Of a stretch of DNA of 64,000 bases, positions 17,889 to 54,419 are shown piece by piece. The translations under genes and the position numbers were made by a program. The notes beneath the pieces are model-generated. The model made no database searches, was not told the origin of the DNA, and saw only the letters and a list, made by a program, of their open reading frames with translations. The first letter of the stretch is position 1. Each line of letters begins with the position of its first letter. Location: contig CAYZIY010000011.1 in NCBI GenBank assembly GCA_964478715.1, positions 1,980 to 65,979 on the forward strand, in the 5' to 3' direction. Origin of the DNA: an uncultured Planctomycetales bacterium (GTDB lineage: Bacteria; Omnitrophota; Gorgyraeia; Zapsychrales; JBDRMG01).

Positions 17889-18932
17889 TTATTGCAGATT
17901 ATTGACGGCAATGGATGTCAGTTGCGATAAAGCGTCAATTGAATCGATGCTGTGTTGGTTAAAAATATCTTCTTCGCTTTTGGTGTGTAAATTCAAAATA
18001 CCGATAAGTTTGTTATTTAAGACAAGAGGAGTAACATAGGCATGCTTGATGTCCTCTCGCTTGAGGAAAGGCTGAATCCGGTTATTTTTACAGCGCGTTC
18101 CGTGTATAATTACCGATGATCGCTGATCAGCAACGGTGCCGGAGAGGCCTTCTCCTATTTTGATTCTTGTCTTTCCGGCAATCTGCGGGTCAAGCCCTCG
18201 AGAGGCCATAATTTTTAAAGTTTGACTGCGCTGATCTAAAAGCATTACCGAACCACATTGCGCTCTAGTGACCTTCAGCACAGAATCAAGGAAATGGGCC
18301 AGGACTTCATCAGCATAAACAGTGGCAAACAATTTCTGGGCTTTGCTTCGGATTTCATCCGGGAGAAGATCGTGGTGGAGTGATTCTTTTTTGAAGATCA
18401 ACTCTTTTAGCTTGAGCTGAAGAATATAATTTCCGATTCTGTCGATTAAATCCAGCACAGATTTGATGCCCACAAATGACAAGACCCGCATCTCATTAAT
18501 TGCCTCCAAGAGATTATTGTCGTCAATCTTTAAAGAATCAGCGATTTTTTGATATTCTTTTTTTTCAAGTCTTTTATTTAGAATCACAGGACCTATGACA
18601 ATGTATGCTATCGCTTTATTTTCATCGATATTTAGAGGAACGGCAAAGTTGTGCAGGTCAAATTGGTAGTTGTATTCCAAATAAAATCCATGTCGACGAA
18701 ATTTGTCAATAAAGACACTATGCTCTTCATTAAGCAGATCAAAGTGGACCGGATGTGTTGAAAGAATGCTCCATCCGTAGCGATCCATTTGAGGCGGGAT
18801 AATGGTTTTTCCCGTACGATCCGTAATGAAGATGTTAATCCGAAGGACATCGACTAAAAACCCAAGGATCTCACTCCATTTGTCTTTTTCTATAACTTGC
18901 GCTAACAGATTGTCAGATTTCTCCGGATTCAT
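17889..18932 (-). CDS. GAF domain-containing sensory protein
   Basis: C-terminal GAF-like region; translationally coupled (4-bp overlap) to the upstream response regulator gene. Confidence 0.4.
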   Translation of the reverse strand: MNPEKSDNLLAQVIEKDKWSEILGFLVDVLRINIFITDRTGKTIIPPQMDRYGWSILSTHPVHFDLLNEEHSVFIDKFRRHGFYLEYNYQFDLHNFAVPLNIDENKAIAYIVIGPVILNKRLEKKEYQKIADSLKIDDNNLLEAINEMRVLSFVGIKSVLDLIDRIGNYILQLKLKELIFKKESLHHDLLPDEIRSKAQKLFATVYADEVLAHFLDSVLKVTRAQCGSVMLLDQRSQTLKIMASRGLDPQIAGKTRIKIGEGLSGTVADQRSSVIIHGTRCKNNRIQPFLKREDIKHAYVTPLVLNNKLIGILNLHTKSEEDIFNQHSIDSIDALSQLTSIAVNNLQ

Positions 18933-20329
18933 TCACTGACCTTTTTAAACGGGATATCGAATTTTTTCATTTTATTATAAAGAGTGGTTCGGTTTATTCC
19001 GAGTTGGGCTGCGGCTTTATTGCGGTTCCAATTCGATTGCCTTAAGGCCGAGAGAACCAGCTCCCGCTCAGGTTCTTCTAAAATGGATTTTAGCCCCTTT
19101 CCCTCTACGGGTTTCAGCGAAGAGCTTTCGAATTTATCGGAATTAGGGATATCCCATGCGTTGATGATGTGAGTTTTAGACATGATACAGGCTCCCTCAA
19201 TTGCGTTTTCAAGTTCGCGAACGTTGCCGGGCCAGTTGTATTCTATTAATAATTTTCTCACATCCGGGGACACATTTTCAATGCTTTTGTTGTTTTTTTT
19301 ATTAATTTTCTTTATAAAATGTTCGATCAAAAGTGGAATATCTTCTTTGCGTTCACGCAAAGGCGGCATCTCGATGCCGATTACGTTAATCCGATAGTAA
19401 AGATCTTCTCTGAACTGGCTTTTAGCAACCAGTGTTTTGAGATTTTGATTAGTTGCAACAATGATGCGGGCATTGGTCTTGCGGGTTGTATTATCCCCGA
19501 CTCGCTCAAAGATGCCGTCCTGCAGGACCCTCAGCAATTTTACCTGCAGATTAGGAGAGAATGCGTCGATCTCGTCGAGAAATATCGTTCCGTCTTTGGC
19601 GAATTCGAATCGTCCCTCTTTATCCTTGATTGCTCCCGTAAAAGCGCCTTTGACATGGCCGAAGAGCTCGCTTTCCAAAAGAGTTTCCGAAAGCGCGCCG
19701 CAGCTGACCTCGATAAACGGTTTTTTACTGCGGACGCGGTCTGTCTTGTGTATTGCCTGCGCCACCAGCCCCTTTCCCGTTCCGCTTTCGCCCGTGATCA
19801 TGATTGTGGCATGAGAATTGGCTACCGATTCTATAATATGATAAACTTTCTGCATTTTCTCTCCAGGTCCGATAAGATCATGAAATCGATGAGGGCGTGT
19901 TTTGGAAACTAGCTGGCGCAATTCTTTGTTTTCCTGCACTAATCTTTTTTGTTCCACTATTTTATTAAGCAGAATCTTGATTTCAGTGTCGTTAATGGGC
20001 TTGGTGATATAATCGGTGGCTCCTTTTCGCATGGCCTCCACCGCGCTTTCGATGGTTCCAAATCCGGTGATCAGGATCACTGCGCATTGCGCGAACTCCC
20101 TCTTGATCTGTTCCAGAAGTTCGATCCCGCTCATTTTGGGAAGCATCATGTCAGTGATCACGATATCGATAGGATTTTCTTTAAGAACATCGAGGGCTTC
20201 TTCCGCAGTGGGCGCCATGAAGGCATTATATTTTTCGATTCTCAGAATTTCATAAAGTGATTTTCGGATCAGAGGTTCGTCGTCTACAATCAGGATATTA
20301 TAAGGGTGGTTTTCAGCTAGCATCGTCAT
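18929..20329 (-). CDS. sigma-54-dependent response regulator, NtrC family (PrsR-like)
   Basis: Receiver domain (DD...K), AAA+ sigma-54 interaction domain (GESGTGKG, GAFTGA), C-terminal Fis-type HTH. Confidence 0.85.
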   Translation of the reverse strand: MTMLAENHPYNILIVDDEPLIRKSLYEILRIEKYNAFMAPTAEEALDVLKENPIDIVITDMMLPKMSGIELLEQIKREFAQCAVILITGFGTIESAVEAMRKGATDYITKPINDTEIKILLNKIVEQKRLVQENKELRQLVSKTRPHRFHDLIGPGEKMQKVYHIIESVANSHATIMITGESGTGKGLVAQAIHKTDRVRSKKPFIEVSCGALSETLLESELFGHVKGAFTGAIKDKEGRFEFAKDGTIFLDEIDAFSPNLQVKLLRVLQDGIFERVGDNTTRKTNARIIVATNQNLKTLVAKSQFREDLYYRINVIGIEMPPLRERKEDIPLLIEHFIKKINKKNNKSIENVSPDVRKLLIEYNWPGNVRELENAIEGACIMSKTHIINAWDIPNSDKFESSSLKPVEGKGLKSILEEPERELVLSALRQSNWNRNKAAAQLGINRTTLYNKMKKFDIPFKKVSE

Positions 20330-21617
20330 TTAACAACGGGAGGGTGACTTTAAAAGTTGTCCCGCCTCCGATTTGGCTATCGATGGCAATATGTCCGTTA
20401 TACGCTTTAATGATTTCACTGGTGATTGTCAATCCCAGTCCGCAACCCTTATCGATGTCTTTTGTCGTAAAAAAAGGCTCAAAAATATTCTCCAGGTTTT
20501 CTTCCGGAATACCGCAGCCGGTGTCTTTGATATGGATTTCAACAGCTTTATCCGCCTGTTGAGTTTTTATCGTGATATCTCCTTCTGCATCCATTGCATC
20601 AATGCTGTTACGTAAAAGATTGACCGCTATATGTTCAATTCCAAAATCTGTAATTTCGGGCAAATTTTGCGCAAATTGTTTATCGATTCGAATGTTTTTA
20701 TGATAAATGTCGAGCTTGACGGCTCCCAGGGCATCTTCGATAGCGTGGTGAATATTGACTCTCCTGATTGTCCTCGGGGCATTACGGGAGCAGGCGAGAA
20801 GATTCTTGACGATATTGGCCATGCGGTTCAATCCCTGTTTTGCCTCAAGGAGATAGCCGCGGATTACCTCGTCTGCCTGAAGTTGATCGAGGCTTAAATT
20901 CACATAACGCAATACACCGTCTAGAGGATTGTTGAGTTCATGGGCGATCCCGGCTGTGATTTTACCGATCGAGGCGAGGCGTTCCTGAATAACGATCTGC
21001 TTCTGAAGGCGGTCGGTGGTCTCTTTCTTTTTCCCCAGCTCGTCTTTCAGAGTTTGAGATTCCCTTAGGACTGTTTTGAATTTTTTATACAATTGAGTGC
21101 GACGGTAATTGAGGGCGATTTGACTTGAGAGAAAATCCAGGATCTGAAGCTCTTGAGGAGAAAAATTCTGCCCTGATTCCTTATCGGCAATATTAATAAC
21201 GCCAACCAGAATATCTTTGATCATTAAAGGTGAGCAGATAAAGGATGGCGTGCGGTAATTTTTGCGGCTTTGGTAATCGGGGAAACGCTTGTCGTTGGCA
21301 ATATCGGAAACGAAAATGGGCTGTTTCATTTCAGCGACTTTGCCGACGATTCCCTCTCCCAATTTTTTCACCAGGGTATCCTCTTCCTGTCTTTGCATGC
21401 CCCTGGCAATCTTTAAAATCAATTGCTGGCCGTTTTCGCTCAATATAAAAATGGATCCTCTCTGGGCCTTGAAGAGCTCTAGAGTTTCTTTGAGAGAGAT
21501 TTCAAGCAGGTCTCGGTCGGTTAACGAAACAGTGACAGCATTACAGATCTTTGAGATTTTCTTAAACAGATCTTCGTTTGTTAGGTCAACAAAGTGCGGG
21601 TGAGCCTCTCTATTCAT
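20313..21617 (-). CDS. sensor histidine kinase with N-terminal GAF domain
   Basis: H-box AHELNNPL, HATPase_c (G-boxes DTGCGIP, GLGL), GAF domain; no TM segments. Confidence 0.8.
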   Translation of the reverse strand: MNREAHPHFVDLTNEDLFKKISKICNAVTVSLTDRDLLEISLKETLELFKAQRGSIFILSENGQQLILKIARGMQRQEEDTLVKKLGEGIVGKVAEMKQPIFVSDIANDKRFPDYQSRKNYRTPSFICSPLMIKDILVGVINIADKESGQNFSPQELQILDFLSSQIALNYRRTQLYKKFKTVLRESQTLKDELGKKKETTDRLQKQIVIQERLASIGKITAGIAHELNNPLDGVLRYVNLSLDQLQADEVIRGYLLEAKQGLNRMANIVKNLLACSRNAPRTIRRVNIHHAIEDALGAVKLDIYHKNIRIDKQFAQNLPEITDFGIEHIAVNLLRNSIDAMDAEGDITIKTQQADKAVEIHIKDTGCGIPEENLENIFEPFFTTKDIDKGCGLGLTITSEIIKAYNGHIAIDSQIGGGTTFKVTLPLLNDDAS

Positions 21618-22501
21618 TATGGTTTAAGCGTGACATCCGCATCAGCTTCTTCCACCACATCGAGTTTTTCGATCATCTGCTTGAGGATTTGGGCTAACGG
21701 ATGTTTCGGATTTTCATCGAGGATGTCTTGATAGAGATTGATTGCCCTTTGCTTATCTTTTAGTTGCGTTAAAGAAATGATATTGATCGATTTTAAGATC
21801 GGCTCGGCTGTTTGAGGATGCGGATATTTTCTCAAAGAAAGCGACAGGGCGTCCAGCGCTTGATTCCAGCGCTTAGCGCTCATATAACAATTAGACAGTA
21901 AACCCAGGAGTTTGAATTCCAAATTCTTTGAAGGATCACTATTGAGCATCTCACGATAATGAATGATCGCGTTATTATAGGCTAAGGTGGCCTGCGGCTG
22001 ATTCCCTTTGTTTTCGTAATATTTCGCGATATACAGAGGCCCGGAAAGACCTTCTTCTGTTTGAGGGTATTTCTGGATCATCTCTTTGTAGATCTTTTCG
22101 GCTTCTTCCCAGTTTCCCTGCGCTTCCTGAACTTTGCCCACAGAAACCATGGCTAAGGCACAGATGTTTCTGTTGTTGGGAAATTTTGGGCATATAGAAC
22201 TGAAAATCTCTTTCGCTTTCTCATAATCTTTCTTGATGAGATAAACGCGACCCAAAATAATATGAGTTTGCGGAGTAAATTTGGAATCAGGGAAGCGCGT
22301 GATCACGGCTCGATATTGACCGGCCAGTCTCTCGAAGGCTTGATCAGGAAAAGATTCCGTGCTTTTAACCATTTTGGCAAATTGTCGATCGGCTTTCCAG
22401 AGCATTTTTTCCGCCGCAAAATCGTCTTTCTGAGATAAAAAGGTTAAAATGCCGAAGACCCCGATAAGGATAATGCAGAGAATAATGATCGTCTTTTTCA
22501 T
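21617..22501 (-). CDS. TPR-repeat protein with N-terminal membrane anchor
   Basis: N-terminal TM helix, multiple TPR-like repeats. Confidence 0.5.
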   Translation of the reverse strand: MKKTIIILCIILIGVFGILTFLSQKDDFAAEKMLWKADRQFAKMVKSTESFPDQAFERLAGQYRAVITRFPDSKFTPQTHIILGRVYLIKKDYEKAKEIFSSICPKFPNNRNICALAMVSVGKVQEAQGNWEEAEKIYKEMIQKYPQTEEGLSGPLYIAKYYENKGNQPQATLAYNNAIIHYREMLNSDPSKNLEFKLLGLLSNCYMSAKRWNQALDALSLSLRKYPHPQTAEPILKSINIISLTQLKDKQRAINLYQDILDENPKHPLAQILKQMIEKLDVVEEADADVTLKP

Positions 22502-23379
22502 AATCGTTCCTTTGCTGATAGGTAAAATATGGTTGTCGCGGTAAGTATTACCGCTTCCAGCATTAATTGCACGATAATGCTTATAGCAATTATAATTGCC
22601 TGGATTTGGGGAAAGCTTATCATAATTTGACCCGATAAGACAATTTGCCGTATCAAAATTATCGGAACATAAAGAAACATGGGTAAAAAGATGACAAACG
22701 CTATAAACCAGAAATGACGAAACAGCACCTTGAAGTTTTCGAGTATTGCCTTATGGATTTTAACCTTTTCAATCACAACGATAGGAAGAATAAAGGCGTA
22801 GAGGATTGTAATAAAAATGTTGATCAAGAGACCGAAGTAAGGCTTTCCGAAAATAACAAGATTTTTAACCGCCGCATACAGGCCTGTTTCCGAGCGGATA
22901 CGCAAAGCTCTATCAAAAGCAATATCGTAAATTTCAAGAAAAAGAAAGACAGTCGCAAAGGTTAAGACAGCCGCCAGGACAATATGAATATATTGTGATC
23001 GAATCTTGCGAAAAACAGATTTCAGAGAAATATTTTTTCCGGCATTAACGAATTCCACGATTCCGATCACAGAGGCGCTTAAGAAACTGCCAATAAAAAG
23101 ATATACCGGAACCTGGGCATCAAAAAATAATTTTGGGAGTAAGTCGTAAAAGAAAGGAAAGTGAACAAATCGAAGCGCAAACTGTTTCTCGATTATGGGG
23201 CCAAAGAAATTGACCAATGGCCAGCGCGGAGCAAACATGAGGATTTCTAATATCAACAGCTGGATGAAGGCCGTAATCACCAATGGATACATAATAACAG
23301 GATGTCCCACAAGGGTATTGACACTTGTCTTAATCAAATCAAGGACATGTTCCTTCTTTCCGGTCGATTTTCTCATCAC
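22498..23379 (-). CDS. polytopic membrane protein of unknown function
   Basis: 293 aa, ~7 hydrophobic helices; 4-bp overlap with downstream TPR gene. Confidence 0.4.
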   Translation of the reverse strand: MMRKSTGKKEHVLDLIKTSVNTLVGHPVIMYPLVITAFIQLLILEILMFAPRWPLVNFFGPIIEKQFALRFVHFPFFYDLLPKLFFDAQVPVYLFIGSFLSASVIGIVEFVNAGKNISLKSVFRKIRSQYIHIVLAAVLTFATVFLFLEIYDIAFDRALRIRSETGLYAAVKNLVIFGKPYFGLLINIFITILYAFILPIVVIEKVKIHKAILENFKVLFRHFWFIAFVIFLPMFLYVPIILIRQIVLSGQIMISFPQIQAIIIAISIIVQLMLEAVILTATTIFYLSAKERL

Positions 23380-23592: not shown

Positions 23593-23889
23593 TTATCGAC
23601 TGATTTTTCTCTTATAAACAGCCATGGCAGCCAATCCGCCCGTTAACAAAAGCATTGTAGCCGGTTCGGGATTATGAATTGTCGCGATCGTTTCCGGTCC
23701 GGTTTGCAATGTTGTGACGATTGTTGCGCCGCCATCTCCTGTTCCTCCTGTCGCAGCCGGTGATGCCGGTCCACTGACGCCCAGAGCGCTTGCTAGACCG
23801 CCCCCGCCGCCAGTTTGACATCCGTATACAAACGGCAATACCACAGAAAGAATGCTGAAGTTGATGAAGCGTGCTAATGTTCTTTTCAT
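23593..23889 (-). CDS. PEP-CTERM sorting domain protein (Gly-rich, small)
   Basis: C-terminal PEPATMLLLTGGLAAMAVYKRKISR; signal peptide MKRTLARFINFSILSVVLPFVYGC; ATG start preferred over upstream TTG. Confidence 0.75.
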   Translation of the reverse strand: MKRTLARFINFSILSVVLPFVYGCQTGGGGGLASALGVSGPASPAATGGTGDGGATIVTTLQTGPETIATIHNPEPATMLLLTGGLAAMAVYKRKISR

Positions 23890-23923
23890 AATTGACTCTT
23901 TCAAGATAAATGTGATTAAATGA

Positions 23924-24781
23924 TTACGATCTCTTTTTTCTAAAGCCCACAAAACCTAAAAGGCCGCTTCCAAGAAGCAGTAAACTCATCGGTTCCGGTA
24001 CGGGAGCGACTTTGGTGATTAAAAACATTGTATCATTATAGTCACTGTCAAACATTGGATCATCTAATGCGAGATCTTCAAACCCGATTAAATAAGTGTG
24101 ATAATCAAGTGTGATTTCGATAGGATCAGCATCACCCAGCTGAATCCACAGTGTTTCGCCTTCCAGTTCGGGAAGATGATAAGCCAGCATGTGATCTAAC
24201 GGATCAGAATTTAAATCCGGATCAGAGTACCATGTTTTAACTTGAGAACCATAGACGCTGGTCAAAGAAAATCCGAAATTCTCAAAACTTGTAAACGGAT
24301 TAATGCCGCCTGGAAAAGGATTACCGGATGTTCCGTCTCCTAAAAATCCATCATTAGGCCCTAAATTAATGACATCGATAATGTCATCAGGTAAGGTTGC
24401 GCCGTATTCAAAAACGCCTAATGTGTTGCTGGCAGCAGCGCTGAGTCCAATTGCAGCGAAGTTACTGGCCTGATCTCCGCCTAAATCATACCAGTATGAG
24501 TTGGGAACGGTGACCATGGCTGAATCAGCATCTTCATTGCTGGAATAAGCCTCAAATCCCAAAAGAAAATTGATGGCTTCATACAATTGAGGATATTGAT
24601 CTTCTCCAGTATAATCCGGATTCTCATTGTTAGACTGTTGCGGGGTTTGGACCGCATCTGGCGTGGAATCATATCCGTCCACAGTCATGATCGGATCATA
24701 CGGACCCGGATCGGCGATCGCCATTGTGCCAAAACTCGCAAGCGCCAGACTAATCGCCAGGCTTAAGATTAACTTTTTCAT
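23924..24781 (-). CDS. PEP-CTERM sorting domain protein (acidic)
   Basis: Signal peptide; D/E-rich; C-terminal VPEPMSLLLLGSGLLGFVGFRKKRS. Confidence 0.8.
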   Translation of the reverse strand: MKKLILSLAISLALASFGTMAIADPGPYDPIMTVDGYDSTPDAVQTPQQSNNENPDYTGEDQYPQLYEAINFLLGFEAYSSNEDADSAMVTVPNSYWYDLGGDQASNFAAIGLSAAASNTLGVFEYGATLPDDIIDVINLGPNDGFLGDGTSGNPFPGGINPFTSFENFGFSLTSVYGSQVKTWYSDPDLNSDPLDHMLAYHLPELEGETLWIQLGDADPIEITLDYHTYLIGFEDLALDDPMFDSDYNDTMFLITKVAPVPEPMSLLLLGSGLLGFVGFRKKRS

Positions 24782-24865: not shown

Positions 24866-25627
24866 TTATAAAATCCTTTTCTTCTTTAATCCTATAAGGC
24901 CTAATAAACCGCCCGATAATAATGAAAGGCTTATCGGTTCGGGAACGGCATCGGTTGTCCTTGCTGTTAAAGCCAGAGAACCTCCAAATTCAGCGTTTAA
25001 GAATTCCGGCCAGCTAATATCCCATGGAAGCTCAATTTCTTCATTTTCTAAGATTGCCGGAATGGAATCATAGAGCGCCAAATAGACTTCTCCGCTCTCC
25101 AAGTCGCCATTGATTAGATATCCCCCGATATCATCATCGCCTTCAGAAAGAGGAATTCCGGAAAGGTAAGTTAAGACGTCTTCTTCGCTGGCTCCAAGGA
25201 GTCCGGACAGAGAAAATGTTCCTAGTTCGATACCGGATTCCGAGAAGCTTTCTTCAAAATCGCCTTCCTCATAGCTGCCCTCTGCCCAGAGATCTGCATC
25301 GAGAGTCCAGTCGTAAACGGTATCCCAGTCTGGAAGATTCCAGTCAAATTCATAAGCTACAGCGCCAACGCCGAAAAAAGGACCATGAGAATTAAGCTCA
25401 TCCAAAATTTCAGAATCCATCTCCAACCAGGATTGTGTTTCCAGGTCGGGTCTGCTGTCATAAGGGAAATACCCCGGCTCTTCATCATCCAGCCAGGCTT
25501 CAGGCCCGTAAAGAATACCTCCGAAAAAATCAAGGGTTGAGGTTTGGGCTGATGCTGAGCTGACCATGAAAGCTAAAGCAATAACTGCAAGAATGATACT
25601 TTTCATTCGACCTTTCCTTTCTTTCAT
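24866..25627 (-). CDS. PEP-CTERM sorting domain protein (highly acidic)
   Basis: Signal peptide; C-terminal VPEPISLSLLSGGLLGLIGLKKKRIL. Confidence 0.8.
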   Translation of the reverse strand: MKERKGRMKSIILAVIALAFMVSSASAQTSTLDFFGGILYGPEAWLDDEEPGYFPYDSRPDLETQSWLEMDSEILDELNSHGPFFGVGAVAYEFDWNLPDWDTVYDWTLDADLWAEGSYEEGDFEESFSESGIELGTFSLSGLLGASEEDVLTYLSGIPLSEGDDDIGGYLINGDLESGEVYLALYDSIPAILENEEIELPWDISWPEFLNAEFGGSLALTARTTDAVPEPISLSLLSGGLLGLIGLKKKRIL

Positions 25628-25631: not shown

Positions 25632-26282
25632 TTATTGTTTTCTTCTTTTAACCGCGAAACCGACTAGACCTGTCCCTAGCAATAAAAGAGAAGCCGGCTC
25701 AGGCACAACAGGTTCACCATTTTCCGCCAGGACCATTCTCGCAAAAGCAAATCCGTTTGGATTCTGATCTTGTTCATTAAAAGCGACATTGATTGTCATA
25801 GCAGCGATATCCCCCTCAGTCCAGCCGAAAAATTGAGCACCGGAATTTCCCGCGACCGGAATAGTCAATGAAGAATCATCGCTCAATGTTAAAGTGACAT
25901 CGAAAATACTGTAAACATTGGGTTCAATCTCCAGTCCGAAGGCATAAAGAGAAGAATCGAATGTTCCCGTCAAAGTGTTAGGGCTGCTGACTAAGACAGC
26001 GCCGGTATAACCGCCGGACCATGTGGCCCAACCGGATCCGATTGTGCGCCTCGTTAAGTCGGCATCGAAGCTGATCGATTTGCTTTGAGGCAATGATAAC
26101 GGGGTTCCGGCCGTCAAGACATCGCCGTTATTGGGAAGCTGAGGTGTAAAATCAACATCAAAAAATGAATCCACAGCTCCTTCCCAGCTGGCTCTGTTAT
26201 CCCAGAGCGTTATCGCATGCGCGTTTTGCGCTAATGCGATACTCACGCAGATGACCAGAGCGGAAATTAGATACTTTTTCAT
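25632..26282 (-). CDS. PEP-CTERM sorting domain protein
   Basis: Signal peptide; C-terminal VPEPASLLLLGTGLVGFAVKRRKQ. Confidence 0.8.
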   Translation of the reverse strand: MKKYLISALVICVSIALAQNAHAITLWDNRASWEGAVDSFFDVDFTPQLPNNGDVLTAGTPLSLPQSKSISFDADLTRRTIGSGWATWSGGYTGAVLVSSPNTLTGTFDSSLYAFGLEIEPNVYSIFDVTLTLSDDSSLTIPVAGNSGAQFFGWTEGDIAAMTINVAFNEQDQNPNGFAFARMVLAENGEPVVPEPASLLLLGTGLVGFAVKRRKQ

Positions 26283-26283: not shown

Positions 26284-27030
26284 TTAGCTCCTCCTTCTTT
26301 TTATAAGACCAATTAGTCCCAGTCCTAGCAAGCTCAACGTTGCCGGTTCGGGGATAACGGGTTCTTCTTCGCCCTGACCGACCCAGCTGGCCACATTGAT
26401 TGAGAATTGTCCGTTGTCCGCGTATGACCAGTAATCATCGCTGAAAACATTGACATCAAGCATCGCTAATACATTATCTTGAGGGCCCCACAATGTCGCG
26501 ATGCTGTCGTCAAAAAGGGAAATGCCGCCGTCAGCCCGCCCGCCGTTCGGAACATAAATCGAACTGACGCCATTTGTTAATGCGTGATCGAGAACCGTAT
26601 TGTAAACACCGTTTGTTTCGTAATTCGCGTCATGTCCACCCAGCAAGGAAAGGAATGATTCATTCCATGTATTCCAACCGGTATTTTCGCCCATGAAGAC
26701 AACGCGACCGCCGTTATTTATGAACGAACTAAGATTCACGGCTTCAGCTGTGTTGAGTGATCCCGGTGAAGCATCCCAATCACTCTTTCGAAGGTCTACC
26801 CATACAGCATCGGCATTTGCGACCTGTGAAACATCGCCAAGGTTTGATACGACAGTAAAGCCTCCTGAGTAACTCGCGTTTAAGGCGGATGTCATTTGCG
26901 TCCAGTAAGAACTGCCGTAACCATAGTTGGTGCTATGCATTGATTCAGAAACTAAAATATAGGCCTGCGCCTGACTGCCCGCAAAAAGAACTAAAGAGAT
27001 GATTGCCATGGTTACAAATATTTTTTTCAT
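26284..27030 (-). CDS. PEP-CTERM sorting domain protein
   Basis: Signal peptide; C-terminal IPEPATLSLLGLGLIGLIKRRRS. Confidence 0.8.
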   Translation of the reverse strand: MKKIFVTMAIISLVLFAGSQAQAYILVSESMHSTNYGYGSSYWTQMTSALNASYSGGFTVVSNLGDVSQVANADAVWVDLRKSDWDASPGSLNTAEAVNLSSFINNGGRVVFMGENTGWNTWNESFLSLLGGHDANYETNGVYNTVLDHALTNGVSSIYVPNGGRADGGISLFDDSIATLWGPQDNVLAMLDVNVFSDDYWSYADNGQFSINVASWVGQGEEEPVIPEPATLSLLGLGLIGLIKRRRS

Positions 27031-27077: not shown

Positions 27078-27656
27078 CTAAACCGTCATTTTTTTTCTAA
27101 TCAATCCAACCAGCCCCAACCCTAAAAGGGTTAAAGTTGCCGGCTCAGGAACCGGGCACTGGGTTTCGGGAGTTAAGCCGGTGATATCAAGATCGTAGGT
27201 CCAGCCGGAGCTTCCGCCACCTGTAAATCCAAAATCGCTATAGCCTGTCGCGGCAACACCATAATATCCGGAAGAAGCAATGGCATAGTTGTAGATAGCT
27301 GAATTATAGCCGGTGTATCCATCATCATTGTAAGCAAGCTGAACTCCCGATGGAGAATAAAATCCAAGCAAAGGATCGTTTGTGTAGCTTGTGCCGCCAG
27401 GAGCGACATAGATCATCGTGATGATGTCGCCGGATGTGGCGTAAAATCTGTAGAAATCAACGGAGCTATCTCCAACTCGTGAACCATCAATATGGACCGT
27501 TCCATCATGTCCATAGAGAAATTGTGCCGTACCAAAAGAATTGTTTGTCTCAACTTCTGTATAAATGGTAGCTTGAGCTGCAGGAGTTAATGTTAAAAGA
27601 AGTCCTATAATTCCAATCATAACCAGTAAATACTTCATGCCTTCTCCTTTATCCAT
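27078..27656 (-). CDS. PEP-CTERM sorting domain protein
   Basis: Signal peptide (probable start MKYLLVM); C-terminal VPEPATLTLLGLGLVGLIRKKMTV. Confidence 0.8.
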   Translation of the reverse strand: MDKGEGMKYLLVMIGIIGLLLTLTPAAQATIYTEVETNNSFGTAQFLYGHDGTVHIDGSRVGDSSVDFYRFYATSGDIITMIYVAPGGTSYTNDPLLGFYSPSGVQLAYNDDGYTGYNSAIYNYAIASSGYYGVAATGYSDFGFTGGGSSGWTYDLDITGLTPETQCPVPEPATLTLLGLGLVGLIRKKMTV

Positions 27657-27667: not shown

Positions 27668-28543
27668 TTAACGCGCACCTTCACCCGTTAAGACAACACG
27701 GATGGTCCTTACTATAATTGTTAAATCCGTCCAAAGACAAAGTTTACGGATGTAGAGTAGATCGTATTTGATTTTTTTCTTCACATCGTTGATTGACTCA
27801 TCGTATTTATGCCAAACTTGAGCCAAGCCGGTAATGCCGGGTTTGACTTTCAGTCTTTTTTCATAATCAGGGATTACTTTTTTGAATTCATCGACAAACA
27901 TGGGGCGTTCCGGTCGCGGACCGATCAGGCTCATATCCCCTTTAAGGATATTGACAAACTGCGGTATTTCGTCCATGTGGGTTTTACGGATTAGCCCGCC
28001 CAGCGGAATCAATCTTTTATCATTATCCGAAGCCCACACAGGGCCGGAATGATCTTCAGCATCAACATGCATGGTTCGAAACTTATAAATGGTAAAAAGC
28101 TGCCCGTTTTTTCCCACGCGCGTCTGCTGGTAGATAATGGGACCCCGGCTTGTCAATTTGATCAAGACAGCCAAAAAGAGACAGATGGGCGAGGCGAGAA
28201 TGATCCCCATGGCAGCGGCCACAATATCAAAAAGTCTTTTGACTTTCTGATAAATTTTTCGGACAAAACCTACCATCATGCCGAAGATGCCGCTTCCAAA
28301 AAGAGCCAATGTGGTTGGCTCAGGGGCGCGCGAACGGGATTCTTCGGGTAAAACCGGTTTAATAGATTCAATACCTTGACGATTAACAGATGGATGATCG
28401 TGCGGCTTGATTAAAGAGAGTGCAGCCCAGGTTGTTGTCCCAAAAATAACGACCAAAGCAAAAGCGGAAATAGCCAAAGTAACCCGTTTAAATCTTTTTT
28501 TGGATTTTTTTCGGTAAATTGTTCGAGAAAGCGCTTTCTTCAT
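27668..28543 (-). CDS. polyprenyl glycosylphosphotransferase (bacterial sugar transferase, EpsL/WbaP-C-like) with N-terminal PEP-CTERM-like module
   Basis: Catalytic domain with KRLFDIV...PICLFLAVLIKLTSRGPIIYQQTRVGKNGQLFTIYKFRTM and DEIPQF...GPRPERP; N-terminal 100 aa carry a signal anchor plus APEPTTLALFGSGIFGMMVGFVRK. Confidence 0.8.
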   Translation of the reverse strand: MKKALSRTIYRKKSKKRFKRVTLAISAFALVVIFGTTTWAALSLIKPHDHPSVNRQGIESIKPVLPEESRSRAPEPTTLALFGSGIFGMMVGFVRKIYQKVKRLFDIVAAAMGIILASPICLFLAVLIKLTSRGPIIYQQTRVGKNGQLFTIYKFRTMHVDAEDHSGPVWASDNDKRLIPLGGLIRKTHMDEIPQFVNILKGDMSLIGPRPERPMFVDEFKKVIPDYEKRLKVKPGITGLAQVWHKYDESINDVKKKIKYDLLYIRKLCLWTDLTIIVRTIRVVLTGEGAR

Positions 28544-28771
28544 GATACCTTATATTGAAGCAAATAGCGTGCCATAATTTCATAAAGAAGGCAGAATTAT
28601 GGACAAATCTTATCTTATTGTCATTCAATGTGTTATGCGTCAATAATTTGGCATGAAAACAATTAGTCATGGTAAAACCTACCAGAGGTATGACATACCA
28701 TGACAATACCATGTCCTAAACCTTCGACATGTTTTACCCTTTCATCATTTATTTATTAATTCTGATTTTAT

Positions 28772-29416
28772 TTATGGTAAATATTCCTGCAGGAGCGGTA
28801 TGATTGTCCGGACAAAGTTCTTCATGACGGAAATCGTTTGGGGTGTATTTTCATATGTTGCGGGTGAGGATACACGGATCAGGGCACTGCTGGCTGATTG
28901 TCCCACTAAAGTTTTTAGGGCAATCAGGATCTGCTGCTTCCAGTAGCTAGAGGTGAATATATTACCGACTTTAAACCAATAAAAAGCGATTTGTTTGTCT
29001 CCTCTTCCCTCGAGAGAGAGACGGTTGACGTCAATCACCAGATTTTCCTTTGGGACCGGAATCTTGTCTTTTTCATTTTCTAAAATCGTAATGCCGCCGC
29101 CGGTGTAGCAGACTTCCGGAGGATGCGTGGCCTTGCGGTTGTTTTCCGTGTAGACAATAAATAAAAACATCTGCTCGCCTTCGGGATTCGAATATTCCCG
29201 CACAAAGGCGTTGCGGGTTTCCAGAATCGCATATTCCTTGTCGCTGATAGGCAGTTCCCGCGAGGTCCATTCTCCAATTGTTTTGGGGAACAGATGAATG
29301 TCAACCGATGTTGTCTGCTTGTATCGTTTGAAATACAGCGACCATGTGATCACGGCCACTAAAAGAAAAATTGTAATTAAGACGATAAAATTTTTGTCTT
29401 TCTTGACACGCATCAT
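28772..29416 (-). CDS. EpsI-family exosortase-associated protein
   Basis: ~210 aa, N-terminal anchor, periplasmic domain typical of EpsI (DUF3485-like); 4-bp overlap with the exosortase gene. Confidence 0.65.
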   Translation of the reverse strand: MMRVKKDKNFIVLITIFLLVAVITWSLYFKRYKQTTSVDIHLFPKTIGEWTSRELPISDKEYAILETRNAFVREYSNPEGEQMFLFIVYTENNRKATHPPEVCYTGGGITILENEKDKIPVPKENLVIDVNRLSLEGRGDKQIAFYWFKVGNIFTSSYWKQQILIALKTLVGQSASSALIRVSSPATYENTPQTISVMKNFVRTIIPLLQEYLP

Positions 29417-30255
29417 TCCAAAACCTTTCCCACAAAATACAACAATACGAAAGCGATCGCAAAGACCAGGAATCCGGAGAAATCATGCACAAAGCCTGTG
29501 GCATATTGCGCCCCCCAGATTTCCGAGACAAAAGATAAAAAAATCACACGGATCACATTGGTGATAATGGCGATAGGAATTGTTGAAAGAAACAGTATCG
29601 TTTTTTTCACCCAGCCGGTTGTCATCCAGTAGGCAAAAATGCTACCCAGCGCGGTCAATGAAATCAGAGAGCGTAGTCCGCTGCAAACATCATCGACGAC
29701 AACATGGGTATGGCGCATCTTGATGATGCTGCCTTCCCGGATCGCCAGGATGTTCATCTTATTGAGTATGACGGCTGCGATATGGGCGGCGAACAGTTTC
29801 ATTTTAAAGCTGATATTGCTGATTACAACCATCGGAAGCGGAATCATAAAAAACAAAAAAGCAATGGGAAACGCGACAATTTTTAATATCGCGAATCCGT
29901 AAAAATGAAGAATCAAGCCGATGAGAACAAAAAGCATGGAAAAACCGGACGTAAAATAGACGCGGAACAGAGAACTAAAAACATGGATAACCAGGCCTAT
30001 GATGATCAGCTTCAATCCCAGCGGAGATGATTTGATCTTGCACTTGGCCAGTTCATCTCTCTTTTGCCAAATGAGATAAATGCTGACGAAAGGAATTAAA
30101 ATTCCATGTGAATAATAGGAATCACGGGCAAACCACCTCTGCCACATCCAAAGAAACGTCGGAATATACATAATCAGAAAGACGGCGATGAGGATGAGTT
30201 CGGACTGGAAGTTTTTAGCCGTTTTGAGCAGGTTTTTAGTACTAAGCTTTTTCAT
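29413..30255 (-). CDS. exosortase (EpsH/Xrt family)
   Basis: 280 aa, ~8 TM helices, conserved active-site region VDDVCSGLRSL (Cys and Arg of exosortases). Confidence 0.75.
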   Translation of the reverse strand: MKKLSTKNLLKTAKNFQSELILIAVFLIMYIPTFLWMWQRWFARDSYYSHGILIPFVSIYLIWQKRDELAKCKIKSSPLGLKLIIIGLVIHVFSSLFRVYFTSGFSMLFVLIGLILHFYGFAILKIVAFPIAFLFFMIPLPMVVISNISFKMKLFAAHIAAVILNKMNILAIREGSIIKMRHTHVVVDDVCSGLRSLISLTALGSIFAYWMTTGWVKKTILFLSTIPIAIITNVIRVIFLSFVSEIWGAQYATGFVHDFSGFLVFAIAFVLLYFVGKVLE

Positions 30256-33682: not shown

Positions 33683-34792
33683 CTATATAAGAAGATTAAG
33701 AAATTCCAAAGCAGGAGCGGCGCGAATTCCTTCAGGGGTGATGTAGTTCTTTTTGCCCGTAGCATGGATTTGCCAGGCTTCGGATTTCGGAAACTTGTTT
33801 TTTAGATACTTCAATGATTTACTGATTGCATCATCCGAGTATTTGCATTCAATTAATGTGACTGGAGAATTGTTTTCAACAATGACAAAATCGACTTCCC
33901 GTCCGTCGATATCCCGGAAATAGCGAAGATCAATATCGCGTCCTTTAGTGTCCTGCTCATAATGAATCCATTTTAAAAGATGTGATGCCACCAAATTTTC
34001 AAAGCGCTGCGGCCATTGCGGCACCAGAGACCAGTCAAAATGATAATGCTTTTGCTCTTTTTTGACGGCTCGGATCTTTGGTGCGCCAAAGGGGCTTAAT
34101 CGAAAGATCGCATAAATTCTTTCAAGCACGGCGATCCAGGACGAAAGCGTTTTATGGCTCACCTGGAGGTCTTCACGTAAGGCGTTTAATGAAAGCGGAC
34201 TCGCCACAAGATCTGGAAGGCGAATCATCAGGAGTTCCAGGCGGCCAAGATCCTGGATTCTTTCTAAAGAGAGAACGTCTTCGCGAATCAATCGATTGCG
34301 ATATTCCCGTGACCATCTTTTGGCTTCTATTTTTGATCCACCGAGAAAAGGTTCGGGAAAGCCTCCCAATTCAAGAAGAGACATGAAATCTTCTTGTTTC
34401 CTGATTTTTAGCTCTGCAACAGATAGCGGATGGAGACGCAGATAATGATATCTTCCCTGAAGAGAGTCTCCCCCAAATCGGTATAAATCCAATCTGGCGC
34501 TTCCGGTTACGAGGATTTTAAGGTTTTTTGGCGAAGCATCGTATAAACCTTTGAGATAATTACGCCAACCCCTATATTTGTGCAACTCGTCAAAAACAAG
34601 GAATTTAGCTGGTGGAAGCTCACGCTTGAGGATGAGCTCACGATGTTGTGCAATATCCCAATTCAGGTATCCTTTGAAATCTTTAAGAACGGCTTTAGCA
34701 AGGGTTGTTTTTCCGACCTGACGCGGTCCTCCGAGAAACACCATTTTTTTGGATAAATCGTGATTAACTTGAGAAGTCAGATAACGTTTCAT
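33683..34792 (-). CDS. AAA+ ATPase with C-terminal DUF4143 / PD-(D/E)xK-like domain (COG1373 family)
   Basis: Walker A GGPRQVGKTT, Walker B LVFDELH; C-terminal DIDGREVDFVIVE...IECK nuclease-like motif. Confidence 0.7.
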   Translation of the reverse strand: MKRYLTSQVNHDLSKKMVFLGGPRQVGKTTLAKAVLKDFKGYLNWDIAQHRELILKRELPPAKFLVFDELHKYRGWRNYLKGLYDASPKNLKILVTGSARLDLYRFGGDSLQGRYHYLRLHPLSVAELKIRKQEDFMSLLELGGFPEPFLGGSKIEAKRWSREYRNRLIREDVLSLERIQDLGRLELLMIRLPDLVASPLSLNALREDLQVSHKTLSSWIAVLERIYAIFRLSPFGAPKIRAVKKEQKHYHFDWSLVPQWPQRFENLVASHLLKWIHYEQDTKGRDIDLRYFRDIDGREVDFVIVENNSPVTLIECKYSDDAISKSLKYLKNKFPKSEAWQIHATGKKNYITPEGIRAAPALEFLNLLI

Positions 34793-36057: not shown

Positions 36058-38076
36058 TTAATCTTCCTTCAATACTATTTCCGCCAACTCTCTCCTCGCC
36101 TCTTCCCAGACATCCGGATCGGTAGACCAACTGATGTCCGCATGAACATACGACGGATCCTTAGGGTCGGTGACACCCACTTCCCAGAGCACTTTGGGGA
36201 TCATTTCATTGACAATTTCTTTCACTCCCTGAGGATCAATTTTGGCGGCCATGGTCAGATAATCCACATCCTGAATTCCGCGGCGCCAGTGTTTAAGCCG
36301 CAAACTGGCAATAGGCCCATCCAGCCCATAATCTTCTCTGCGGAATCGCTTTTCTGTGCCGGGATAGAACAGAACGCCGTCACCGTTGCTATAATCCGAA
36401 CCGGTTTCTCCGTATTTCGCGTGCCGTTTATCCCATTTCCGGCCAAAGGTCCAGGCACTTTCAAAAACATTGGTTTCATGATTCGCATGCGAAGGATTTC
36501 GATAAGATGTGGAGTGCCAATAAAACCACCGGGCAATTTTATGTTTAAATTGGGTCCATCCGACAACGCGCAGGGCCACACCGTCATCCTCAATGGCAAA
36601 AGATCCGGTCGACGGCCGCCATCCGTTATAAGCCCAGTAATCTTTTCCTTCTCTTTGGTAATTTTTAACGATTGGGCCAAAGACATCCGCATCGCCCCAG
36701 CCGGTAAAAGCGATATCAACTGAGGGCATGTGCTTTTCGACTCTTGGAAGAAGACTTGTGGCAAGTGTTCTTAAGCGTTTCCCTTGTTCAGGATTTTCAT
36801 CAATCCAATGGGCCCACCGCTCCACATCATCAAAACTTTTTGATCGAGGCTCATCCAGTAAATAAAGGAAATATTCCACTTTTGGCGCATATCGCTTAAA
36901 CCACTCCACCCAGAGATTGCTTAGGAGCCATAAGTCCCGCTTATTATCTTCATTCCATTGACGCCTCCATGCTCCATAGGTCCCGATGGAATACACATTG
37001 CTTGTTGATGCCTTGCCCGGACCGTCATAGCCGTTTTTTTGAGAAAAAGCGTCACCGCTTAATACATCCACCCATTTTTTGGTATGATCATCAAACCTCT
37101 CATCAGTATTGCTGGGCTCTATCCCCATGCCGGGATCAATGAGGGAAATTTTATGACGATGCGCAACCTTATGATGATTAAGCCAGATTCGATCCAGTCT
37201 TTTTTTATCCTGTTTGCTGACTTTACTCCAGTTAGGCCACCTCTCTCCATAATAGCGGTCACGGATATCTTCATCCTGGTAATAAAGCATGGTTTTCGCA
37301 TGGGGTAAATCTGGCAAAGCAAAATTTAAAACCTCAAGCTGAACAGGAATTGAAACATCTTTTTCTGTCGCTGACTTTACAGTAAGAATGCCTTTATAAA
37401 AACCCTGATCGAGATCCTTTGGAATATAGATATCAATCCAGATGCTCTGGTTATTTTCCTTTTTTATGTCAAAGGCGCCGACAGCTTCGATAGGAACGGC
37501 GATGTCGGGATAAAATTTATTCGCATTGGGGCGGTTTTCAAAGCGGCCGCGGGACTTTCCTTTAGGTAATTTATAAGGCAGGCGTAATTTTTCGGGGACA
37601 TGTCTTTCATCATATTCGGGACGGTACAGAAGACGCGTCAGCCCTTTGATTTGCAGATAACGGATATAAAAAAGCTCAATATTACGATCCACAAAATCAA
37701 ACACATTATTTTTCGGGACTTTTTTAGAGCTTATCGTTTGACCGCTGTCGTTTTCCAAATGATCAAAAATAATATGGACATCCTGCAGATCCCTGCGCGG
37801 GGCCTCGATAATCAGATTGAAGGCAATCACCTCATTGCGGGCGCCGAAAAGACGGATTCTCTCCCCGTCCCAAATGCTGTTGGTGACGTCTTTTCCTCTG
37901 GCGGCTCTCAGCTCATCCCGGGTGACCTTATCTTCCCCATTGTTGGCCCAGATTTCAATTGGCCGGCTGAACACAAGACTCTTAATCGGTTTTTCTTTTG
38001 AAATCCCGACAAGGGCGATGAAAAGCCCTAAAAGCAAGATAAAAATTCCTAGAAGTCTATTTCTGTCTTTTTTCAT
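36058..38076 (-). CDS. large membrane-anchored hypothetical protein (possible DUF4091-like glycoside hydrolase/EPS-processing enzyme)
   Basis: 672 aa, N-terminal TM anchor, Trp/Tyr-rich extracytoplasmic domain; no recognisable catalytic motif. Confidence 0.3.
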   Translation of the reverse strand: MKKDRNRLLGIFILLLGLFIALVGISKEKPIKSLVFSRPIEIWANNGEDKVTRDELRAARGKDVTNSIWDGERIRLFGARNEVIAFNLIIEAPRRDLQDVHIIFDHLENDSGQTISSKKVPKNNVFDFVDRNIELFYIRYLQIKGLTRLLYRPEYDERHVPEKLRLPYKLPKGKSRGRFENRPNANKFYPDIAVPIEAVGAFDIKKENNQSIWIDIYIPKDLDQGFYKGILTVKSATEKDVSIPVQLEVLNFALPDLPHAKTMLYYQDEDIRDRYYGERWPNWSKVSKQDKKRLDRIWLNHHKVAHRHKISLIDPGMGIEPSNTDERFDDHTKKWVDVLSGDAFSQKNGYDGPGKASTSNVYSIGTYGAWRRQWNEDNKRDLWLLSNLWVEWFKRYAPKVEYFLYLLDEPRSKSFDDVERWAHWIDENPEQGKRLRTLATSLLPRVEKHMPSVDIAFTGWGDADVFGPIVKNYQREGKDYWAYNGWRPSTGSFAIEDDGVALRVVGWTQFKHKIARWFYWHSTSYRNPSHANHETNVFESAWTFGRKWDKRHAKYGETGSDYSNGDGVLFYPGTEKRFRREDYGLDGPIASLRLKHWRRGIQDVDYLTMAAKIDPQGVKEIVNEMIPKVLWEVGVTDPKDPSYVHADISWSTDPDVWEEARRELAEIVLKED

Positions 38077-53276: not shown

Positions 53277-54419
53277 TTACATAAAGCGTCTTGGACTACT
53301 CCAGAGCTGATCAAGGAAGTTTTTCCAGGGAAGTATTTTAATCCCCTGAATAATTCTCGGCCGTTTTTCCAGGCACGCAACGACATAATGCTTGATTCTT
53401 TTCTCTTCTTTGAGCGCCTTCATTCCTCTTAGGTCTCTTGGAGAGATATTGCCCTTTGCCTTGGCTTCCACGGCAAGGTTGTCATTTATTATAAAATCAA
53501 CCTCGTATCCGGATTTGGACCGCCAATAATGAAGATCGCCCAAATTATGATAGTCGACAAACGTTTTCAGCTCGTGCGCCATATATGTCTCAAACGCGTC
53601 TCCGAATTCCGGCGACTTTTCTTTTATTTCCGGCCGATTTTGCAGGTATCGCACCACCCCTGCGTCGAAAAAATAAAATTTCGCGGTTGAAGTGGGCTTT
53701 CGTTTTTGACTCTTTTTCCATGCCGGGACATCAAACCCGATAAGTGTATCGCGCAAAATCTGAAAGTACTCCTGGACCGTACTGGCGGGTACCTGGGCGT
53801 CATTGGCTATATTGGCATAATTGATCAACAAGCTGTTGCAGGCGGCCGCAACCTGCAGAAACCTGCTGAATGCCGGGACATTTCTGACCAGTCCCTCGGC
53901 TGCGACCTCTTCTTTTAAATAGTTTCCGGAATAGGCCTTCAAATCCTGCTCAGGGGAGTCAGAAAAATAAATCGAAGGAATCAAACCGTTATTCAGCGCT
54001 TTGCGTAAATCGAATTTTTCCTTAAGTTCACGGTAAATAAACGGATGCAGGTTTGCCGAACGCGCCCGGCCGCCCAAAAGGTTGACGCCTCCTCTGCGCA
54101 GTTTTCTGGCGCTTGATCCTGTCAACAGAAAATGAATTCTTTGCTTTTCAATAATCCGATGTACTTCATCAAGCAGAAAAGGTAATTTCTGAATTTCGTC
54201 AATTATAATGATCTTTTCTTTGGACCGTATTTCCTGTTCAAGCCTTTTTGGCTCGCGGCTTAAAGTCAAATAGATATCGTTGTCCAAGAGATCATAGACG
54301 CGGAATTGTTTCAAGCTATGGGCTATCAGCGTGGATTTTCCCGTCTGCCTCGCGCCAAAAAGAAATAGTGACTTGCTCTTTAACGCTTTTAGGACGTCAA
54401 TCTGACGGTCGATATACAT
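53277..54419 (-). CDS. AAA+ ATPase with C-terminal DUF4143 / PD-(D/E)xK-like domain (COG1373 family), second copy
   Basis: Walker A GARQTGKST, Walker B IIIDEIQ; C-terminal GYEVDFII...VEAK. Confidence 0.7.
   Translation of the reverse strand: MYIDRQIDVLKALKSKSLFLFGARQTGKSTLIAHSLKQFRVYDLLDNDIYLTLSREPKRLEQEIRSKEKIIIIDEIQKLPFLLDEVHRIIEKQRIHFLLTGSSARKLRRGGVNLLGGRARSANLHPFIYRELKEKFDLRKALNNGLIPSIYFSDSPEQDLKAYSGNYLKEEVAAEGLVRNVPAFSRFLQVAAACNSLLINYANIANDAQVPASTVQEYFQILRDTLIGFDVPAWKKSQKRKPTSTAKFYFFDAGVVRYLQNRPEIKEKSPEFGDAFETYMAHELKTFVDYHNLGDLHYWRSKSGYEVDFIINDNLAVEAKAKGNISPRDLRGMKALKEEKRIKHYVVACLEKRPRIIQGIKILPWKNFLDQLWSSPRRFM

Follow-up and report, generated by a model that had tools for sequence, protein, structure and literature searches.

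Exosortase/PEP-CTERM systems were tied to exopolysaccharide synthesis in 2006, and then only by co-occurrence and gene neighbourhood. Canonical PEP-CTERM proteins have a signal-peptide-like N-terminus and, by definition at the extreme C-terminus of the protein, a PEP motif with a glycine-rich helix (∼18 residues) and then a basic cluster behind it (Haft et al. 2006, PMC1569441). Among the monotopic phosphoglycosyl transferases (PGTs), which fall into small, large and bifunctional classes, the small PGT (Sm-PGT) PglC of Campylobacter (8e37/8g1n) has nothing before its re-entrant helix, WbaP-type large PGTs start with a four-helix bundle and a nucleotide-sensing PF13727 domain, and bifunctional PGTs (Bi-PGTs) have a functional module added N-terminally to the core (PMC10312794). 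Here we describe a gene that brings together features of the two systems. It lies in a stretch of 64 kb from contig CAYZIY010000011.1 of an uncultured bacterium of the Omnitrophota (GTDB lineage); we call this whole stretch the window. The gene encodes a small monotopic PGT with an internal PEP-CTERM block directly in front of the catalytic core.

The open reading frame (ORF) of the transferase is continuous, with no stop or frameshift, and encodes 291 aa (stop codon 27668-27670). Its parts are listed below; AF2 stands for an AlphaFold2 model.

27668..28543, minus strand: PEP-CTERM-bearing small monotopic PGT, whole gene (ORF and profile matches)
28484..28543, minus strand: strongly basic N-region, residues 1-20, 11 K/R of 20, predicted to be cytoplasmic (sequence)
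28424..28483, minus strand: hydrophobic helix, residues 21-40, ending in T-W-A (family consensus A-W-A)
28328..28423, minus strand: predicted periplasmic spacer, residues 41-72, polar (entropy, AF2)
28256..28327, minus strand: internal PEP-CTERM block APEPTTLALFGSGIFGMMVGFVRK, residues 73-96, with PEP motif, transmembrane helix and basic cluster (TIGR02595, PF07589)
28241..28255, minus strand: junction IYQKV, residues 97-101, with invariant Y98, joining the sorting helix directly to the PGT re-entrant helix
27671..28240, minus strand: complete PglC-like monotopic PGT core, residues 102-291 (PF02397, structure-sequence alignments)

The block has the form APEP-TTLALFGSGIFGMMVGFV-RK, the glycine-rich helix being followed by R95-K96, so that PEP tripeptide, hydrophobic helix and basic cluster follow each other in the expected order. 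Residues 73-96 match TIGR02595 with 21.7 bits (cutoff 16) and PF07589 with 21.4 bits (gathering score 20.7). The PEP-CTERM proteins encoded next to the transferase score 19.2-30.7 bits on TIGR02595; the block falls inside this range and is therefore as good a match as genuine PEP-CTERM proteins are. The same genome has an exosortase, encoded together with EpsI directly upstream of the PGT gene. The block is followed by 195 further residues and is thus not at the extreme C-terminus: residues 73-96 have all the sequence features of a PEP-CTERM signal but its defining C-terminal position.

The remainder of the protein matches PF02397 (residues 102-285, 225.5 bits, cutoff 27) and, with its C-terminal two thirds, TIGR03025 (exopolysaccharide polyprenyl glycosylphosphotransferase, 301.4 bits, cutoff 295.55). 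The core has a re-entrant helix starting with KRLFD, the S118-P119 break and the D191-E192 dyad; which PGT residues count as catalytic was taken from published PglC work. Residues 101-289 align with residues 10-189 of PglC (8e37, 8g1n; E 2e-32), and the core also aligns with residues 327-527 of WbaP (8t53). Profile and catalytic residues place the protein in the monotopic PGT superfamily, and its expected chemistry would be sugar-1-phosphate transfer to undecaprenyl phosphate. The original prediction, made from the letters of the sequence, had put forward this anatomy of a basic tail, a hydrophobic helix, a PEP-CTERM-like block and an in-frame PGT domain; the sequence and both profile searches, TIGR02595 for the N-terminal part and PF02397 for the rest, bear it out.

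Compared with the described enzymes, the transferase resembles Sm-PGTs along the whole core, with the KRxxD start, the Ser-Pro re-entrant helix and the Asp-Glu dyad; unlike PglC it has 96-100 extra residues in front, comprising signal peptide or anchor, spacer and PEP-CTERM helix. With TIGR03013 (EpsB_2), the sugar transferase of XrtA/PEP-CTERM systems, and with WbaP-type large PGTs it shares a homologous catalytic domain and the situation of a priming PGT beside exosortase genes. However, TIGR03013 is matched with 264.8 bits only (cutoff 393.35) and over profile positions 244-443 of 443, i.e. not over its full length: the transferase lacks the N-terminal part, ∼240 residues, that those enzymes have, and the PEP-CTERM module stands in its place. 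There is no Pfam match to the four-helix bundle or the PF13727 domain in the 96-100 residues that precede the core. We classify the transferase, on its sequence, as neither a TIGR03013 enzyme nor a WbaP-type large PGT. As in Bi-PGTs, an N-terminal functional module has been added to the PGT core, yet the added part is a sorting signal for another membrane machine and not an enzyme domain. Likeness to canonical PEP-CTERM proteins extends from the signal-peptide-like N-terminus through PEP, helix and basic cluster to the profile thresholds passed and to the position beside exosortase/EpsI genes and a sigma-54 two-component system; the differences are the 195 enzyme residues beyond the block and a 'cargo' of only ∼30 variable residues.

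A search of 5.8 billion proteins gave >100 homologues from NCBI, ENA, JGI and Logan assemblies (268-332 aa, 55-66% identity to the query, 87-100% query coverage); the four with an organism in the source name all come from Candidatus Omnitrophica metagenome-assembled genomes (MAGs). About half of the homologues carry precomputed matches to both PF07589 and PF02397, and the architecture is in this sense visible in public data. Conservation was assessed in the 120 best homologues, and column entropy in the query and 119 homologues. All 120 have the same build, PEP included, and share the pattern [KR][SA][RHQ]-A-P-E-P-[STA][TS]-x-x-L-F-G-[SG]-G...F[VI]R[RK][TS]Y...KRx[FLI]D. P74, E75 and P76 are invariant, A73 is conserved at 98% and R72 at 84%; A73, L81, F82, G83, G85 and G88 all reach at least 97%. 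On the side of the enzyme Y98, K102, R103, D106, P119, D191 and E192 are invariant, with S118 conserved at 90% or more.

The column entropy was 0.61 bits in the PEP segment, 0.80 bits in the catalytic domain and 1.02 bits in the second helix, against 2.73 bits in the first helix and 3.06 bits in spacer residues 51-69. The PEP block is about as conserved as the catalytic domain; the first helix and the spacer are hypervariable. This difference argues for selection on the motif and not on hydrophobicity alone: a mere hydrophobic linker would not hold a periplasmic Pro-Glu-Pro fixed amid drifting surroundings. The internal PEP block is, judging from this pattern, under strong purifying selection. 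The N-terminal extension is conserved in orthologues together with its APEP and does not behave as an ordinary transmembrane linker, the outcome that would have told against the original prediction. In an alignment of 35 members (A1) 23 reach TIGR02595 at E ≤ 0.01 and 30 match the PEP-CTERM end of the PepA model. The block of the Omnitrophota family forms a distinct subtype, A-PEP-[ST]T..LFG[SG]G..GM.

The N-region keeps a positive charge in the homologues (median net +4), its sequence not being conserved. Residues 21-40 could be a signal anchor that stays uncleaved or else the h/c-region of a signal peptide, in which case a signal peptidase I type site would follow A40. Small residues occupy positions -3/-1 of the aligned A40 in 117 of 120 sequences, compatible with signal peptidase I (AxA), and A40 is conserved at 93%; the uncharged N-terminal run has a median length of 20 residues, which makes an uncleaved anchor equally possible. 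The spacer opens with the semi-conserved [AT]LSF[VI]KPxD, is hypervariable in its middle and carries a conserved basic R-S-R close to PEP on the N-terminal side, and the distance from A40 to PEP varies from 29 to 44 aa over the 120 sequences. With positive charges on both sides of a polar middle, the predicted topology is in-out-in, PEP being periplasmic and the PGT core cytoplasmic. Query residue 101 corresponds to PglC residue 10, so that the core has a re-entrant helix of its own at its start, and therefore only an out-to-in helix puts a periplasmic motif before it. The PEP helix of the PGT would thus be oriented in the membrane as Haft et al. (PMC1569441) modelled ordinary PEP-CTERM tails. 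The AF2 monomer (35-sequence alignment, predicted local distance difference test score, pLDDT, 72) has a helix at residues 2-43, disorder at 46-79 (pLDDT <50) and one long helix, 86-131, that runs into the core.

The public NCBI copy of the protein, P0001, is 100% identical and 269 aa long; its annotated start is TTG, L23, at window position 28477, and not ATG, M1, at 28543. The deposited gene start is probably wrong, because a start at L23 removes the K/R-rich N-region that is common to all homologues.

To see how far the junction extends, 1.84 billion representatives (50% identity) were searched with a profile, and the 150 most similar PGTs were compared. A PEP-helix-basic block was found at a fixed distance before the core in 14 of these 150 best representatives; PEP lies 134 or about 154-166 aa before GPRP, and the spacing of 134 is also seen in distant fusion variants. 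The PEP-helix-PGT part is constant, and what is exported varies between nothing and a full domain. P0165 starts with MPEP and has no part before PEP, P0153 has only 14 residues there, and L002 (7953..8678) has no N-domain; a mini spacer is present in P0121, P0122 and P0124; and an exported domain of ∼50-245 residues, mostly with a textbook signal peptide, precedes PEP in P0127, P0129, P0130, P0145, P0166, P0183 and P0219. P0138 and P0193 also have a domain before PEP, with recorded N-termini that lack a signal peptide. An Elusimicrobiota locus encodes a stand-alone canonical PEP-CTERM protein (L085 9301..10878) with whose C-terminal half the N-domain of P0130 shares 46% identity (E 1e-63), and the match takes in the residues leading into PEP; the fusions therefore derive from genuine exosortase cargo.

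The loci of P0127, P0219 (an Elusimicrobiota MAG) and P0165, namely L084, L085 (Elusimicrobiota) and L086, all have exosortase, EpsI or PEP-CTERM genes. The Elusimicrobiota name among the related PGTs comes with the record MFC2061069.1. In L002, from a Candidatus Brocadiia MAG, MGTEAEGPMPEPATLTLLGTGFIAMGVRYLRTKY is followed by the PGT core, and the PEP-CTERM protein encoded directly downstream has a tail that shares PEPATLTLLG with the PGT signal. In three loci the PGT block is clearly closer to tails of its own locus than to tails of other loci, with identities (of 19 positions) of 14.5 versus 10.2 in L084, 10 versus 6.4 in L086 and 11 versus 8.7 in L002. A scan of a genome collection with the family alignment gave at least 80 PGT loci, all of them generic and from other phyla; close relatives were not among the matches listed. 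L002 was the sole carrier of the module, which was not found in the other 79 loci among those listed. The PEP-PGT architecture is real, ancient and functional-looking.

Along the direction of transcription the locus consists of the exosortase gene, EpsI, a 228-bp gap, the PGT gene, six PEP-CTERM genes, the gene for a protein with no family assignment and genes for a TPR protein, a kinase and a sigma-54 regulator.

29413..30255, minus strand: exosortase (EpsH family), presumed reader of the PEP signal (PF09721, 224.7 bits)
28772..29416, minus strand: EpsI, exosortase-associated (TIGR02914, 108.9 bits, cutoff 42.8; PF11984, 119.2 bits)
27078..27656, minus strand: canonical PEP-CTERM protein 1, beginning 11 bp after the PGT stop, tail VPEPATLTLLGLGLVGLIRKKMTV* (PF07589, 29.1 bits)
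26284..27030, minus strand: canonical PEP-CTERM protein 2 (PF07589, 28.5 bits; TIGR02595, 22.9 bits)
25632..26282, minus strand: canonical PEP-CTERM protein 3 (TIGR02595, 30.7 bits)
24866..25627, minus strand: canonical PEP-CTERM protein 4, clear motif, tail VPEPISLSLLSGGLLGLIGLKKKRIL* (sole and weak profile match, NF038125, E 4.7e-4)
23924..24781, minus strand: canonical PEP-CTERM protein 5 (TIGR02595, 25.4 bits)
23593..23952, minus strand: canonical PEP-CTERM protein 6, small and glycine-rich, tail NPEPATMLLLTGGLAAMAVYKRKISR*
21617..22501, minus strand: TPR protein, PrsT-like (TIGR02917, 40.4 bits, cutoff 312.2)
20313..21617, minus strand: GAF histidine kinase, PrsK-like (TIGR02916, 82.4 bits, cutoff 300)
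18929..20329, minus strand: sigma-54 response regulator, PrsR-like (TIGR02915, 400.7 bits, cutoff 502.6)

The exosortase matches TIGR02602 with 179.8 bits (cutoff 105.55) and the TIGR04178 signature with 68.8 bits (cutoff 23); it reaches no curated subtype, XrtA being scored at 186.1 with a cutoff of 208. None of the equivalog cutoffs for XrtA, PrsK, PrsR and PrsT is reached at the locus, which is XrtA-like in layout and not a curated subtype. Exosortase and EpsI genes are also present at L081, L082, L083 and L086. In the window and on three long contigs of relatives (L081, L082, L083) the order exosortase, EpsI, PEP-PGT, PEP-CTERM genes, the unassigned gene, TPR gene is kept; the kinase and sigma-54 regulator genes follow the TPR gene where the relatives' loci reach that far, and the TPR, kinase and regulator genes have the same order in L081, L082 and L083.

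The unassigned gene (22498..23379, minus strand) encodes a ∼290-aa protein with no Pfam or NCBIfam match. It always lies between the PEP-CTERM/PGT block and the TPR gene, with counterparts in L081 (14259..15134), L082 (12273..13142), L083 (10442..11305), L084 (9589..10458) and L085 (11021..11863), and gives the impression of a conserved, so far undescribed part of this exosortase system.

The intergenic gaps of the six PEP-CTERM genes do not exceed 84 bp, and the small gaps suggest co-transcription of the PGT with these six exosortase substrates. Their PEP motifs are at positions 27149, 26352, 25703, 24943, 23998 and 23670, and the six proteins terminate 1-3 residues past the PEP-helix-basic block. 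The original prediction had placed the six genes upstream; in the direction of transcription they are downstream of the PGT gene. It had also seen in the PGT block an 'almost residue for residue' copy of their sorting signals, which overstates the likeness: of 18 positions, the block has 7-9 in common with any one neighbour, whereas the neighbours have 8-15 in common with one another. Nor does the block look like a seventh local PEP-CTERM gene that has fused recently to the transferase, as it is an old and distinct subtype with 8.5 identities to tails of its own genome and 8.3 to tails of other genomes. A neighbouring PEP-CTERM gene joined to the PGT gene by the recent loss of a stop codon was rejected on the same grounds: the fusion is old and has its own subtype.

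For PEP-CTERM protein 6 the real start is likely to be an internal MKRT. The N-terminus counted from there ends in FVYGC, which resembles a lipoprotein box, and the protein could be both lipid-anchored and exosortase-sorted.

Farther upstream there are many GT4/GT2 glycosyltransferase genes and genes for a Wzy-like protein, a Wzx-type flippase and an acyltransferase. Because the transferase is the sole PGT homologue within the window, it is likely to be the priming enzyme of this Wzx/Wzy-type exopolysaccharide locus.

A putative promoter was found in front of the transferase gene.

28560-28574, minus strand: putative sigma-54 promoter, exact consensus TGGCACGCTATTTGC (TGGCAC-N5-TTGC; pattern match)

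This site is the only exact match to the sigma-54 consensus in the window and ends 16 nt 5′ of the PGT ATG, and the locus encodes a sigma-54 activator. L082 has a near-identical site at the same position (31 nt before the PGT start, also ending 16 nt before ATG), and similar sites lie upstream of the PEP-PGT genes in L086 (at a distance of 78 nt from the PGT start) and L002 (at 38 nt), so that the site recurs in relatives of other lineages. With one mismatch allowed, 5 sites were found in the window against 3.6 expected, which is not above chance; for this reason weight is given only to the one exact site, to where it stands and to its reappearance in relatives. The transferase appears to head a sigma-54 operon together with exosortase substrates. 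The 16-nt distance would make the leader unusually short, in the window as in L082, and the PGT start codon is taken as provisional.

What might a sorting signal do inside a priming enzyme? We give about even chances to the reading in which the PEP signal is a recognition handle that makes the transferase an exosortase client, docked and, where there is cargo, probably cleaved. As the PEP-helix-PGT part is constant and the exported part variable, the function under selection would be the transferase as a client of the exosortase. The basic tail and the first helix would insert via Sec, the first helix would probably be cut off at the conserved AxA site, and the spacer, ∼30 residues of arbitrary sequence, would be exported. 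PEP would then stand at the periplasmic face, with the helix crossing the membrane back and the basic cluster and PGT core in the cytoplasm. A topology of this kind is what the re-entrant PGT fold needs and, at the same time, the topology of a normal PEP-CTERM tail. The adjacent exosortase may read the PGT helix as it reads the tails of the six co-transcribed PEP-CTERM proteins, and the priming enzyme would in this way be brought to the exosortase and probably be processed by it. Whatever is cut off, helix and transferase would stay in the membrane beside the exosortase, and the start of lipid-linked sugar synthesis would be coupled to the sorting of PEP-CTERM proteins. Recognition by the exosortase, and docking as opposed to cleavage of the transferase, is what we infer from the architecture, its conservation and recurrence and the genes around it.

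Several observations weigh against an exosortase client. Its recognition is read from conservation and context, and the AF2 monomer is of medium confidence and has helix, linker, helix and core only, with no partners. To our knowledge, the biochemical action of exosortases on PEP-CTERM proteins has not been established. The block of the Omnitrophota family is no closer to tails of its own genome than to other tails, and it has Ala in place of Val/Ile before PEP, LFG in place of LLG, and GM; this subtype could be read differently or not be cleaved. Among close relatives, P0125 (VPEA), P0128, P0132, P0134 and P0140 keep helix and junction and have lost PEP. In these natural PEP-loss variants, which also include P0178, the motif reads VPEA, LQPAG, TPEV etc., and the out-to-in helix, the basic cluster and the [YF]xxxKR junction are kept; the transferase can therefore exist without the motif. 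Finally, a neighbour-joining tree of 151 PGT cores, crude and from a sample biased by the profile, splits the PEP-bearing PGTs into several small groups and not one clade.

The PEP-less relatives also speak for a plain membrane anchor, in which the two helices only hold and orient the transferase and PEP is a relic of an old fusion that no exosortase reads. The position of the block at the low end of similarity to the local tails (7-9/18) and its indifference to the tails of its own genome fit this explanation. A relic, however, would decay, and PEP is invariant in 120 of 120 sequences at 55-66% identity while the adjacent helix and spacer drift; besides, among the loci examined the architecture recurs only in exosortase/PEP-CTERM contexts, and of the generic PGT loci listed by the genome-collection scan L002 alone carries it. 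We consider a plain anchor quite improbable. An artefact, i.e. a missed stop, frameshift or misassembly that joined a PEP-CTERM gene to a transferase gene, would have nothing but the oddity of the architecture in its favour. The original prediction had allowed for it; the ORF is uninterrupted, >100 homologues from independent NCBI, ENA, JGI and Logan assemblies share the continuous reading frame and the junction length, and the chance of such an error is negligible.

Two explanations, each with a rather small chance of being right, would let the exosortase act on the protein in other ways. Cleavage at PEP could switch the transferase on or off, and polysaccharide priming would then proceed only with a working exosortase; or the uncleaved enzyme could occupy the exosortase as a pseudo-substrate that gates sorting. 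The same conservation and context speak for a switch of this kind as for a docked client. The family-specific A73 (98%) and R72 (84%) differ from canonical tails and could tune cleavage, and PGTs are known as gatekeepers controlled by partners or accessory domains (PMC10312794; PMC12802240). The variants starting with MPEP (P0165), however, have nothing to remove, nothing indicates that the length of the N-terminus matters to a PglC-type core, and a switch and simple docking are not distinguishable in this analysis. Alternatively, the protein could be a polyprotein from which the exosortase releases the exported N-terminal mini-cargo to its acceptor, the transferase being a leftover co-produced one to one. 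Fusion variants with bona fide signal peptides and cargo domains of 100-245 aa, one of them 46% identical to a stand-alone PEP-CTERM protein, would be natural forms of a polyprotein, with which the AxA site (compatible in 117/120 sequences) and the semi-conserved spacer start also agree. Yet the spacer is the least conserved part (3.06 bits, 29-44 aa), P0165, P0153 and L002 have no cargo, and what stays constant is the PEP-helix-PGT junction and not the cargo.

We know of no identified acceptor for exosortases. Sortase A, working with lipid II, cleaves a C-terminal sorting signal and joins the protein to a polyprenol-linked acceptor. In type IX secretion PorU likewise cleaves such a signal and joins the protein to a glycolipid, anionic lipopolysaccharide (A-LPS). 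A linking sugar of type IX secretion is reported in PMC7468200. By analogy only, with no homology implied, a PGT fused to a sorting signal would fit such a scheme. One could speculate, with a low chance of being correct, that PEP-CTERM/PGT fusions are a 'Rosetta stone' for a complex of exosortase and priming transferase that passes cleaved PEP-CTERM proteins to a polyprenol-linked glycan, much as sortase would use lipid II or type IX secretion A-LPS. If so, the fusion would hold the acceptor-making enzyme exactly where the acyl-enzyme intermediate forms, the long-sought exosortase acceptor would be identified, and there would be an explanation for the constant company of PEP-CTERM systems and exopolysaccharide genes.

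Full-text literature searches of incomplete coverage found no PGT described with a PEP-CTERM signal, in line with the original prediction, which did not know the architecture as a described one; it may be tabulated in domain-architecture databases. Nor did full-text searches, again incomplete in coverage, yield a mention of PEP-CTERM together with Omnitrophota. With a sorting signal in the priming enzyme, PEP-CTERM sorting and exopolysaccharide synthesis would for the first time be physically linked; the signal is strictly conserved, and PGTs of several phyla have it behind different N-terminal parts. The monotopic PGT superfamily gains a type of accessory module beside its small, large and bifunctional classes, and 'C-terminal' sorting domains can function inside a protein or are at any rate kept there by selection; this would surprise specialists on exosortases and on PGTs alike. 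Annotation pipelines label such genes only 'sugar transferase', here with a truncated start. One small membrane protein that can be tagged at both ends is a simple handle on exosortase binding or cutting at PEP and on sugar priming, and the tie between PEP-CTERM sorting and polysaccharide synthesis becomes directly testable.

Two minor observations concern the polysaccharide genes of the window. Two paralogous AAA_14/DUF4143 ATPase genes (33683..34792 and 53277..54419, both minus strand) lie among the glycosyltransferase genes. A protein related to the GH123 N-terminal domain (36058..38076, minus strand) has counterparts in L081 (1..789) and L083 (2062..4347) and is a conserved member of these exosortase/polysaccharide loci.

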